Source of the DNA: an uncultured Collinsella sp. | Lineage (GTDB): Bacteria > Actinomycetota > Coriobacteriia > Coriobacteriales > Coriobacteriaceae | Direction: 5' to 3' | DNA length: 64,000 bases | Assembly: GCA_900541885.1 (NCBI GenBank) | Contig: UQKW01000002.1 | Coordinates: 71,514-135,513, forward strand | Part shown: in pieces, positions 12,152 through 52,788 of the stretch | How positions within the stretch are numbered: position 1 is the first letter of the stretch | How the letters are laid out: the number at the start of each line of letters is the position of its first letter | Notes under the pieces: model-generated | Seen by the model: the letters and a program-made list of their open reading frames with translations, nothing else | The model's database searches: none | What the model was told of the DNA's origin: nothing | Program-made: the position numbers and the translations under genes

Positions 12152-12505
12152 GTGGGTGCTGTTAGCGGCATGGCGCAGGTGAATGTTCGCGTAGATCGCT
12201 CGGTTAAAGAGCGCGCCGAGGAAGCGCTGCGGCTTTCGGGCGGAACGCTGCCCGAACTCATCAAAAAGGTCGTGGCCAAGGTTGCGCAGGGTGGTGGACA
12301 GTGTGAGGAAGTGCTGTCTGCCGTTGATGACCGGCAGCAGTCCGTCGCGCCCGATACTCCGTTCGCCGCGTCGTGGGCAGCGGCAGACCGGCTTTATGCA
12401 GATTTGGGCATCGCTACGTCGCCCGTATCCGACGATCGCGATTGGGACGCAATCTATTCCGACGCCATGGATGAGCATTATCGCCAAAAGGGGATGATCC
12501 TGTGA
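12152..12505 (+). CDS. RelB/DinJ-like ribbon-helix-helix antitoxin
   Basis: N-terminus VNVRVDRSVKERAEEALRLSGGTLPELIKKVVAKV is typical of the DinJ/RelB fold. Overlaps the downstream PIN gene by 4 nt. Confidence 0.7.
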   Translation: MGAVSGMAQVNVRVDRSVKERAEEALRLSGGTLPELIKKVVAKVAQGGGQCEEVLSAVDDRQQSVAPDTPFAASWAAADRLYADLGIATSPVSDDRDWDAIYSDAMDEHYRQKGMIL

Positions 12506-13017
12506 GTGGGGCGCCTCTCAAGATCATGGTGGACGCCAACGTATGGGTTGATTCGTTTTGCGCCGACCATGCCGAGTCGATTGCCGCGCGTGCGTTTATT
12601 GGGCAGGCGACGGAGGCGGGGGCATTGCTGTTCTTTCCGGTGCATATCGCCAAGGACGTACTGTATGTTGTACAGCACGAACTGAAGCGCAGCGTTCTTG
12701 CCAGCGGGGGAGCGCTCGGCGAGGCTTCTGCCCGCGCGATTGGCGATGCGGCGCTGGCGTTTGTTCGGAACATGACCGAAAACGCCACGGCCGTGGGTGC
12801 AGATGCGTCGGACCTTTGGCTGGCCGACAAATACTTAGCGCTCCATCGCGATTACGAGGACAACTTGGTACTCGCCGCATGCAAACGCGCCCAGGTTGAT
12901 TACTTGGTGACCAACGATCGAAAACTGCTCGAACATGCCGATCTTGCAGCAAAGACACCTCGTCAAATGATGCCGATTCTTGCTTTGGCCAAACGCGGCG
13001 GCACGGCTATCGGTTGA
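12502..13017 (+). CDS. PIN-domain protein (putative toxin ribonuclease)
   Basis: IMVDANVWVD at the N-terminus and a C-terminal D..LVTNDRKL block. Acidic residues are positioned as in PIN nucleases. Confidence 0.75.
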   Translation: MSGAPLKIMVDANVWVDSFCADHAESIAARAFIGQATEAGALLFFPVHIAKDVLYVVQHELKRSVLASGGALGEASARAIGDAALAFVRNMTENATAVGADASDLWLADKYLALHRDYEDNLVLAACKRAQVDYLVTNDRKLLEHADLAAKTPRQMMPILALAKRGGTAIG

Positions 13018-13749: not shown

Positions 13750-14113
13750 GGGGGCGACTGGTTTCGACACGATAGCTCTGAGAGAGGAAGCAAGCCGAGG
13801 TCTCCTCGCCTCGTTAAACAGGGGTACCGTCAAATTGAATTGACAACAACTCTTCTTTTGAGCCTATGGCTCTCGCTGCTTAATTTATAGCGGCGCGTCA
13901 ACCCGGTGATTTCCCCGACACCGGCGCGACGTCATTTTAGGGGAATGCTCCTGCGCACGTAATCGGTATGGCGCGGGCTAAGACCGAACCGGTTAGGACG
14001 CCGCGAGCGTGTCGCTGCGCGCAAAGCGTCCGAGACGAAACCAGCGACTGAGCTTGGAGATGCCAATCAGGGGGCTTTCGTGGACCGGAGTTCGATTCTC
14101 CGCGCCTCCACCA
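13750..14113 (+). ncRNA. ssrA: tmRNA (SsrA), ~364 nt. Predicted tag ends ...FEPMALAA followed by a stop.
   Basis: 5' gggggcgactggtttcgaca pairs with 3' ...cggagttcgattctccgcgcctccACCA (G3-U wobble, tRNA-Ala-like). Tag ORF gacaacaactcttcttttgagcctatggctctcgctgcttaa. Confidence 0.85.
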
Positions 14114-14117
14114 ATTG

Positions 14118-14158
14118 TTGCAAGCAGGTAGGTAAACGCACCTACCTGCTTTTTTATT
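14118..14158 (+). terminator. Rho-independent terminator of ssrA
   Basis: gcaggtaggtaaacgcacctacctgc followed by ttttttatt. Confidence 0.7.
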
Positions 14159-14170
14159 ACCTATAGATAT

Positions 14171-14205
14171 CGCGGAGAATCGAACTCCGTGCAGGGCGCG
14201 GGCGT
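14171..14205. repeat. 35-bp repeat, copy 1. Contains 19 nt identical to the reverse complement of the ssrA T-arm.
   Basis: cgcggagaatcgaactccgtgcagggcgcgggcgt. The first 19 nt equal the reverse complement of cggagttcgattctccgcg from ssrA. Confidence 0.8.
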
Positions 14206-14382: not shown

Positions 14383-14417
14383 CGCGGAGAATCGAACTCC
14401 GTGCAGGGCGCGGGCGT
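14383..14417. repeat. 35-bp repeat, copy 2 (perfect direct repeat of 14171-14205)
   Basis: Identical 35-mer 212 bp downstream of copy 1. Confidence 0.8.
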
Positions 14418-14429
14418 TAGCAACAGTCG

Positions 14430-14573
14430 GGTGAGTAGTCAATTTGGGACGGGGCTATTTTAGCTACCCCATGTTGAGGGAACGCTCTGAGATGATTTTT
14501 TGATCCCCGTCCCAGAAAAATCATCAGGCGGGCAGGGTAGCTAAAATAGCCCCGTCCCAAATTGACTACTCAC
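14430..14573. mobile_element. MITE-like element, ~144 bp, with perfect 40-bp terminal inverted repeats and an internal 10-bp-stem hairpin
   Basis: The left arm ggtgagtagtcaatttgggacggggctattttagctaccc is exactly the reverse complement of the right arm at 14534-14573. A related copy is at 30720-30798. Confidence 0.75.
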
Positions 14574-14785
14574 CTTGATACCTCTTCGCGGAAAACGCGT
14601 CCCGGAATATCGGCTCAGACTGGGACGTAGTTTCCGGATGACGCCTCAAGCGGAAAGTTCATCCCAGAATCCCGCGCTCAAAACGGGACACGCCTTCCGC
14701 TCCGCCTCCTCAACTCCAAAACCTGTGCGCCCACCATCATAAAACTGGGTAGAAGAGAGCCAAAACGCAATCGCAGGAGGTCAAC

Positions 14786-30581: not shown

Positions 30582-30719
30582 ATCGTGCTCCTCTAGATAC
30601 GTAATAGTGTGATGTGTTGTAAGGATTCTACAGCACCGCTGTGTCACGGTGGAGTTTCACTCGCTATTTGGGGATACCAATCGAAAATGCTTTGCTATCG
30701 GCATTCCCTATAACAGGGC

Positions 30720-30798
30720 GGTCAATCTAGGATGGGGCTATAAAGACTGGTATCTTATGTGAAATACCAGTTAATAGAGCCCCATCCCAAATTGACTA
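30720..30798. mobile_element. Short (~78 bp) relative of the 14430-14573 MITE-like element, with 22-bp arms and an inner hairpin actggtat...ataccagt
   Basis: atagagccccatcccaaattgactac aligns with atagccccgtcccaaattgactac from 14550-14573. The left arm gtcaatctaggatggggctat is the reverse-complement partner. Confidence 0.7.
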
Positions 30799-31007
30799 CC
30801 CTTAAACCATGGGGAGAGGTCTGCAATTTATACAGTTGATTGGCTGTTGAGGGTGGCAACGCCGTCGCGATGCGGTAACCTCATTGATTGGTTTCGCGAC
30901 AGCAACATAACGGTAATGTTGCGGAAACACGGCGAGTCTAAGCTATGACTCGTTCGTTAGTAATCAACACCGCTTCTCACGCGGTGCCGATACGAAGGGA
31001 GTTCCGT

Positions 31008-33808: not shown

Positions 33809-33908
33809 AGCGGGAAAGAGTATAGCAGACTTTTTTAGCCGTTCACATATCGTTGGCAAACTGAAAAACCACCACAAAGGTGCCTGTCCCCTTTGTGGTG
33901 GTGAGGTG

Positions 33909-52560: not shown

Positions 52561-52788
52561 CACGCTGGTCTGCATGGCTGGTTCCTCCTTTATGTAGATG
52601 ACCATGCAGAAAAGGGATAACCAAGGAGGCAGGTTACTGATGCGGACTCCCGCACGCCCACGACTACCCGACGGGGACTGTGTTTTTATCTCTGATGGTT
52701 GGATTGTAGCATGCGCGAAAGCGCGTCGACATCGCTGCTGACATGGCGCGATCGGGATTCGCTCCTCGACGCATCCTTGTGCATATTG

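Follow-up and report, generated by a model that had tools for sequence, protein, structure and literature searches.

Classical REP families comprise tens to hundreds of copies, and the E. coli transposase TnpA-REP recognizes the short motif GTAG. In elements of the IS200/IS605 type, the left and right ends typically differ from each other; such elements are usually present in several copies, move horizontally and often include tnpB. Correia/NEMIS elements of Neisseria and other bacterial miniature inverted-repeat transposable elements (MITEs) are intergenic, 100 to 150 bp long and bounded by terminal inverted repeats, and they sometimes lie in promoters; Correia elements, whose movement is attributed to a DDE-type enzyme, create a duplication of a TA target. 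To our knowledge, work on REPIN-RAYT systems has dealt almost exclusively with Proteobacteria. As published, their palindromic extragenic units form inverted doublets with a looser spacer, decay into singlets and show matched changes in the two arms, and their Y1 transposase sits at a fixed chromosomal locus, flanked by repeats whose types are lineage specific (PMC3116915, PMC5581495).

We analyzed a window of 64 kb, the whole of one stretch of DNA from an uncultured Collinsella sp., in which a repeat search finds a full REPIN-like doublet of 145 bp at 14430..14574 (copy 1), laid out as arm, central hairpin, arm. Both arms are type A units of 40 nt separated by 65 nt. The left arm (14430..14469 (+), GGTGAGTAGTCAATTTGGGACGGGGCTATTTTAGCTACCC) has its G-rich strand on the plus strand, and the right arm (14535..14574 (+)), with its C-rich strand on plus, is 100% complementary to it over all 40 nt. 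A first-pass annotation of the window had already called these 40-mers exact reverse complements, which they are; it set the start of the element correctly and its end at 14573, one base short. Between the arms lies a type B hairpin (14491..14525 (+), GATGATTTTT-TGATCCCCGTCCCAG-AAAAATCATC), itself a dispersed unit, with 10-nt stems at 14491-14500 and 14516-14525 that are 100% complementary and bear out the 10-bp interior hairpin described previously. The repeat search also places the core decamer TGGGACGGGG at 14445..14454 (+) and, as CCCCGTCCCA, at 14505-14514 and 14550-14559, giving three decamers in copy 1. Folded as single-stranded DNA, the element has a predicted energy of -58.4 kcal/mol (z = -14.3 versus shuffled sequences), and it is the most intact among about 35 doublets compared.

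The left-arm sequence is also the full-length arm consensus of a repeat family, which identifies both 40-nt arms as family termini rather than flanking sequence that matches by chance. The 34-nt centre of the left arm is identical to the family consensus. Within the window, the 20-mer CCCCRTCCCAAATTGACTAC occurs 3 times against 0.01 expected from shuffles. Further, an 18-mer core is found in all four arms of the window's two copies, the second of which (copy 2) lies in the metF-glnN spacer, as anticipated when the two loci were first proposed to be related.

Copy 1 lies downstream of the tmRNA gene (13750-14113) and of the terminator of that gene (14122-14151); a patatin-like gene (start 14786) begins 212 nt downstream of the element. 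The same spacer holds other repeats. Beside the tmRNA gene is a 35-nt direct repeat, 100% identical between 14171-14205 and 14383-14417, the reverse complement of which has 19 of 19 nt (CGGAGTTCGATTCTCCGCG) in common with the T-arm/3' end of the tmRNA. It is part of a duplication of about 212 nt that differs in copy number among strains, and the repeat and duplication may have been left behind by an integration at ssrA. Units of 62 nt at about 14588-14710 (starts 14588 and 14650) likewise differ in number from strain to strain in a set of 62 relatives; for the window copy, TRF reports nothing at these units. For the tmRNA itself, the tag peptide given by ARAGORN (ARQPGDFPDTGATSF) conflicts with the Rfam alignment, in which the tag frame at GACAACAACUCUUCUUUUGAGCCUAUGGCUCUCGCUGCUUAA yields DNNSSFEPMALAA followed by a stop, a typical ALAA-ending tag. 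A PIN-domain toxin, overlapping an upstream small ORF, is encoded at 12152-13017 (+) in the interval from a P-type ATPase gene to the tmRNA gene, and elsewhere in the window an azaaromatic (yjdF) riboswitch aptamer is found at 52597-52699 (-) with 59.5 bits.

The terminal motif recurs well beyond the window. The 18-mer GCCCCRTCCYARATTGAC has at least 120 matching stretches in species-representative genomes, nearly all of them Collinsella. Most matching records carry that label, and the few labelled 'uncultured bacterium', Coriobacteriaceae or Acutalibacteraceae have the same flanks as Collinsella loci. All but two among the matches listed have Collinsella-type flanks, the exceptions, in Sphingomonas and Acidobacteriota, being chance matches in coding sequence. 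The matches listed collapse to about 18 distinct intergenic sites, most common to many species. With crude gene calling, nearly all Collinsella-type regions are intergenic; three copies called 'inside' a gene belong to one site, whose orthologues are situated in a divergent spacer. Viral contigs returned 0 matches to the motif, and the sole match in a plasmid collection is to a mislabelled record. This record, NZ_OY725717.1 of C. aerofaciens TSDC17.2-1.1, is labelled 'plasmid 6' (899,693 bp) and carries recA, dnaE, rho and genes for ribosomal proteins and aminoacyl-tRNA ligases, indicating that it is a piece of the chromosome and not a plasmid. The family has 8 sites in 400 kb of it, about one per 50 kb.

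Both the existence of the family and its organization into doublets and singlets are direct observations. The type A unit is an imperfect palindrome of about 35 to 40 nt with the layout GTAG...TGGGACGGGG...CTAC. The type B hairpin (AATGATTTTTT-AATCCCCGTCCCA-GAAAAATCATT), which is the same unit as the interior hairpin of copy 1, and a third stem type from a C. aerofaciens record, type C (CAGTCTTTTT-AGCCCCGTCCC-AAAAAGACTG), have no GTAG foot, and the decamer TGGGACGGGG is common to all unit types. Of 140 arm regions examined, 98 hold a single recognizable arm and 15 are inverted doublets of type A, the rest being mosaics with type B. What had been read as terminal inverted repeats are thus conserved ends, as claimed, but each arm is an imperfect-palindrome unit that also occurs singly or in other combinations. 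Within a single arm, 77% of positions pair, versus 16 to 48% in slid controls, and covariation within single arms shows no excess over shuffled controls. We rejected the compensatory-looking variants GTAGCTAA/TTAGCTAC and GCAGCT/AGCTGC as signs of selection on the arm hairpin, since they show no excess over shuffles, and we likewise rejected core-versus-flank conservation at orthologous sites as evidence because the loci had been preselected by an exact core match.

Other palindromic repeats were also noted. Two more families, one with GTTAAACGTAGTAGATAGGCCCATTTCGTGGC and one with GTTGCGGTGAAATAGGGACTGTTT...AAACAGTCCCTATTTCACCGCAAC, occur in the same intergenic mosaics (L009, L013, L019, L017 and other loci). 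A separate family is represented in the window by a hairpin with a 13-bp stem at 33865-33902 (AAAACCACCACAAAGG-TGCCTGTCC-CCTTTGTGGTGGT), which adjoins tRNA-Glu. No 16-mers are more frequent in the 400 kb of C. aerofaciens than those of this separate family (12 occurrences), and the hairpin's loop, which reads GGGGACAGG on the other strand, resembles the transposase-flanking units of other Coriobacteriia.

Comparison of sites shows how the units behave. At four independent sites (the window, L034/L086, L048 and L054), neither 34-nt arm departs from the consensus, and the spacers of these four sites are barely alignable. That homologous whole elements stand at different loci is directly supported: the copy present at the tmRNA site in L176 and L004 has a spacer about 75% identical, by a by-eye estimate, to that of the copy between aroC and pheA (NZ_OY725717.1, 150026-150142). 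This shared spacer has the appearance of a type B hairpin that has decayed; as the type B hairpin of copy 1 is intact, copy 1 is the best-preserved version seen. Matched changes in both arms are found in copy 2, whose arms carry an identical core variant (GGGATGGGG/CCCCATCCC), between L134 and L176 (GCAG/CTGC) and in the aroC-pheA copy (TTAAT/ATTAA). Altogether 79 arm differences are matched versus 178 confined to one arm, with at least four independent cases and with orthologous copies inflating the counts. In two cases, L004 and copy 2, a single arm represents a doublet whose other arm, the left one, has decayed. Sites are remodelled, with modules gained, lost or swapped in place, partly through recombination between the repeated cores. 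Candidate clean empty sites among the genome loci were rejected, their size differences reflecting deletions, core recombination or module turnover.

A transposase gene adjoins some of the doublets. In the 400 kb examined, the C. aerofaciens record encodes a single paralogue, a degenerate 270-aa protein with Y1_Tnp and HTH domains (L206 20955-21767, corresponding to NZ_OY725717.1 220955-221767), in which the second HUH histidine is replaced by Arg and the catalytic tyrosine by Ser. It is not flanked by the units and is probably inactive or domesticated. A tblastn search with this paralogue recovers genes 34 to 37% identical that adjoin the doublets of L034, L059, L086 and L099; they are low in GC3 and had been missed by GC3-based gene calling. 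The cognate transposase envisaged in the first-pass annotation is thus a Y1/HUH gene beside doublets at other Collinsella loci, with no tblastn match within the 64-kb window. The L034 gene (4646-5455, minus strand) retains the motifs YHV, NHIHLL (HUH) and RYIHDNP (Tyr) intact and encodes a C-terminal HTH. Its product matches Pfam Y1_Tnp with 44.5 bits (cut-off 23), and its only NCBIfam match is REP_Tyr_transpos (NF047646), at 60.4 bits and below the equivalog cut-off of 80. The HUH histidines H60 and H62 and the tyrosine Y119 are invariant in 40 homologues, and Y14 and R118 are nearly so. An AlphaFold model of the protein (pLDDT 93) has as its top PDB match 4ER8, E. coli TnpA-REP bound to a REP hairpin, with a TM score of 0.72 on the target and a sequence identity of 19%. 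Homologues are abundant in gut metagenomes (one 99% cluster has 1808 members), their range extends to Slackia and Enorma, and one has been named RayT by JGI.

Transposase versions and repeat types are physically linked and co-vary, as is directly apparent from the loci. Versions 99, 95, 88, 57 and 53% identical all occupy the same position, in the order nadD-yqeK-rsfS-Y1-dinB. In TSDC17.2-1.1, of which 400 kb were examined, the rsfS-dinB spacer is 95 nt long and has no such gene; repeats are nevertheless present. Measured against this empty site, the inserted block begins precisely with the GTAG of a G-oriented type A unit and ends in units of C orientation. The gene thus stands between inverted units, of which those before the start codon present the G strand and those after the gene the C strand. 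The flanking unit is type A for the 88-99% protein group, type B for the 57% group (two contigs), TTTTTAGGACGGGGTCCA for the 53% group, GTAGATTTTTGGGACATGCC...AAAATCTAC for a 46-49% group at another locus and TGGGACAAAGGGGACAGTCCCCTTTGTCCCA for the Slackia homologue. Similarly, the Enorma homologue has a flanking repeat of its own, and a further lineage (P0054) has a 39-nt perfect inverted repeat with GGGGACGG and GGGAC. Contigs with the Y1 gene often end inside arms, indicating that assembly breaks at a repeat. Where paired arms are separated by 1.5 kb, the intervening genes (coaX and others) are all housekeeping genes, with no transposase among them. Between the 5' unit and the start codon, CCGTTCGCCGA is conserved in L210, L212, L216, L226 and L227, versions that are only 46 to 95% identical; this sequence may act as an operator or promoter, or it may belong to the recognized end.

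These observations are best explained if copy 1 is a REPIN-like doublet of a REP/RAYT-like system, one member of a non-autonomous, Collinsella-wide family, a reading we hold with high confidence. Two inverted type A units would enclose a spacer that in copy 1 retains an intact third unit, the type B hairpin. The units would be mobilized in trans, most likely as single-stranded hairpin DNA, by the chromosomal Y1/HUH transposase with its C-terminal HTH. By analogy with E. coli TnpA-REP and IS200/IS605, the hairpin would be recognized on single-stranded DNA, after which cleavage and rejoining by the HUH and Tyr residues would leave no target duplication. We found no description in the literature of a REP/RAYT-like system in Collinsella or Coriobacteriia, which is not proof of absence.

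A more specific version of this reading is possible, although we consider it doubtful as a whole. The system may be a loop-reading variant of REP/RAYT, in which the Coriobacteriia RAYT with its HTH would recognize a G-rich loop motif (TGGGACGGGG, or a T-run plus GGGAC) on hairpins with A/T stems. One enzyme could then serve types A, B and C, the enzyme versions would have diverged together with their repeats, and certain fixed copies, for instance that in the metF-glnN spacer, may have been recruited into gene regulation, a role that the first-pass annotation had also raised for this copy.

It is unlikely, in our judgment, that the family consists instead of host-functional sites, TGGGACGGGG hairpins that act as binding sites or as RNA/DNA signals in regulation, termination or mRNA stability and are kept by selection where they stand between genes. 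Orthology of many sites across species-level genomes would suit such a role, as would the occurrence of one decamer in three different stem contexts and the position of copy 2, which lies inside the divergent promoter region of metF (MTHFR) and glnN (type III glutamine synthetase), a region conserved at 89 to 96%. Copy 2 is a decayed doublet at 30715..30802 with arms at 30715-30753 and 30764-30802 (39 nt, 79% complementary, 10 nt apart) and an inner 8-bp hairpin (30746-30753 and 30764-30771). It had been recognized previously as a shorter relative at 30720-30798; the relationship and the shared core stand, and the arms reach further on both sides. Copy 2 is found in 17 other Collinsella genome loci and is therefore probably old and not recently mobile. 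In a spacer that is otherwise 89 to 96% conserved, its left arm is the most variable and fastest-decaying stretch, which argues against selection for a host function and suggests that this is probably an old copy decaying on one arm. Further, the orientation of units relative to flanking genes is inconsistent across sites, no promoter or terminator is predicted inside or overlapping copy 1 or copy 2, neither copy has an Rfam match of note, and units bracket the transposase gene.

The distribution of copy 1 among close strains also speaks against a host function. We compared 80 metagenomic loci with a patatin gene 96 to 99% identical to that of the window, 62 of which include the tmRNA end. In these 62 loci, the tmRNA-patatin spacer measures 255 to 795 nt, a range produced by the 62-nt units and the 212-nt duplication. 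The unit is absent from the tmRNA site in 58 of the 62, an L004-type doublet is present in three, and one retains a remnant. The presence/absence polymorphism that the first-pass annotation proposed to look for is thus directly observed. The window copy has the same right junction as the three doublets, a different spacer and a left junction off by about 115 nt; its insertion event is not reconstructable because the surrounding spacer is itself hypervariable. Absence from 58 of 62 close strains suggests that copy 1 is probably a recent gain, and we regard it as a probably young or recently renewed copy. Its perfect arms are consistent with a recent copy, and hairpin-templated correction of a quasi-palindrome could be an alternative cause of their identity. 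The recent mobility read earlier from the perfect arms thus probably holds for copy 1 and not for the old copy 2. Under a REP/RAYT-like system, a secondary, co-opted role may still exist at some fixed sites.

Very unlikely, too, is the possibility that the units are the ends of an ordinary autonomous IS of the IS200/IS605 type, with the doublets as its palindrome-associated miniature derivatives. The protein does fall in Pfam Y1_Tnp with an NCBIfam RAYT score under the cut-off, and the 39-nt perfect inverted repeat flanking one homologue and the breaking of contigs at repeats are what such an element would show. However, the single rsfS-dinB locus holds versions down to 53% identity, pointing to vertical descent rather than hopping, and the flanks are inverted copies of one unit, not distinct left and right ends. 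The structural alignment to TnpA-REP (4ER8) covers 154 columns versus about 100 for most IS608 and ISDra2 TnpA chains and is also ahead of that to IS200 TnpA, and no TnpB-like gene stands beside the Y1 gene at the loci examined.

A classical MITE, that is, an internally deleted derivative of a DDE-type IS that shares its 40-bp terminal inverted repeats and moves by cut and paste with target-site duplication, is highly improbable: long conserved terminal inverted repeats, small size, the lack of an ORF and presence or absence among strains are all in its favor, but at seven independent doublets no target-site duplication is found at any offset and matching flanks extend the palindrome instead (TGA before GTAG and TCA after CTAC, in four of the seven), the motif is missing from the ends of the IS21, IS30, IS256, IS3 and IS1249 elements that lie in the C. 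aerofaciens 400 kb, no IS with these ends and a DDE transposase occurs in about 1.7 Mb of Collinsella DNA, viral contigs give 0 matches, the only gene found between bracketing units encodes a Y1/HUH transposase, and arms are also found alone or combined into mosaics with hairpins of other types. The term MITE-like in the first-pass annotation is therefore apt for a small, non-coding, dispersed mobile repeat with conserved terminal inverted repeats, but not for the classical mechanism, as target-site duplications are missing at these doublets and the enzyme is Y1/HUH rather than DDE.

With a REP/RAYT-like system as the preferred reading, a gut actinobacterium appears to have a counterpart of REPIN-RAYT. 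Its single-locus transposase versions, each with its own repeat type, offer a natural test bed for the co-evolution of repeat and enzyme; if loop reading were true, they would be natural enzyme-repeat pairs in a human gut commensal. On the practical side, the repeats break Collinsella short-read assemblies, and the units mark hypervariable spacers and could serve strain typing. For annotation, the family accounts for a set of conserved intergenic palindromes, including the one in the metF-glnN control region.

Among described systems, Correia/NEMIS elements resemble the Collinsella family in size, intergenic position and terminal inverted repeats, but the Collinsella doublets show no target duplication and are associated with a Y1 enzyme. 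IS200/IS605 elements share the Y1/HUH fold, hairpin ends and the lack of target-site duplication; unlike them, the Collinsella elements end in inverted copies of one unit, with the gene at one syntenic locus. E. coli REP/BIME sequences and their TnpA-REP (RayT/YafM; 4ER8) provide the best structural match, the type A foot is GTAG, and, as in BIMEs, units of differing type form mosaic clusters; in contrast, protein identity is 19%, the NCBIfam equivalog cut-off is not reached, and types B and C lack GTAG.

The REPIN-RAYT system of P. fluorescens SBW25 (PMC3116915, PMC5581495) offers several parallels. In both, inverted doublets of short palindromes fold into one long hairpin, singlets are decayed doublets, changes in the two arms are matched, the spacer is less conserved, and a chromosomal Y1 transposase flanked by repeats occupies a fixed locus, with one repeat type per lineage. 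In SBW25 this gene is single and inherited vertically, as may also be so in Collinsella. Unlike its SBW25 counterpart, the Collinsella transposase has an extra C-terminal HTH of about 100 aa, and the Collinsella repeats have A/T-rich stems with the conserved G/C-rich decamer in the loop, whereas SBW25 has a G/C-rich stem. The host is a Gram-positive gut actinobacterium, and the copy number, at about one site per 50 kb, is far lower. In a published survey, 16-mer occurrences per replicon are 12 to 14 for RAYT groups 1 and 4 and 57 to 140 for groups 2 and 3 (PMC5581495). The commonest transposase-flanking 16-mer of Collinsella has 4 occurrences in the C. aerofaciens 400 kb, where the family has 8 sites, and this count places the system nearer to RAYT groups 1 and 4 than to groups 2 and 3 (PMC5581495).
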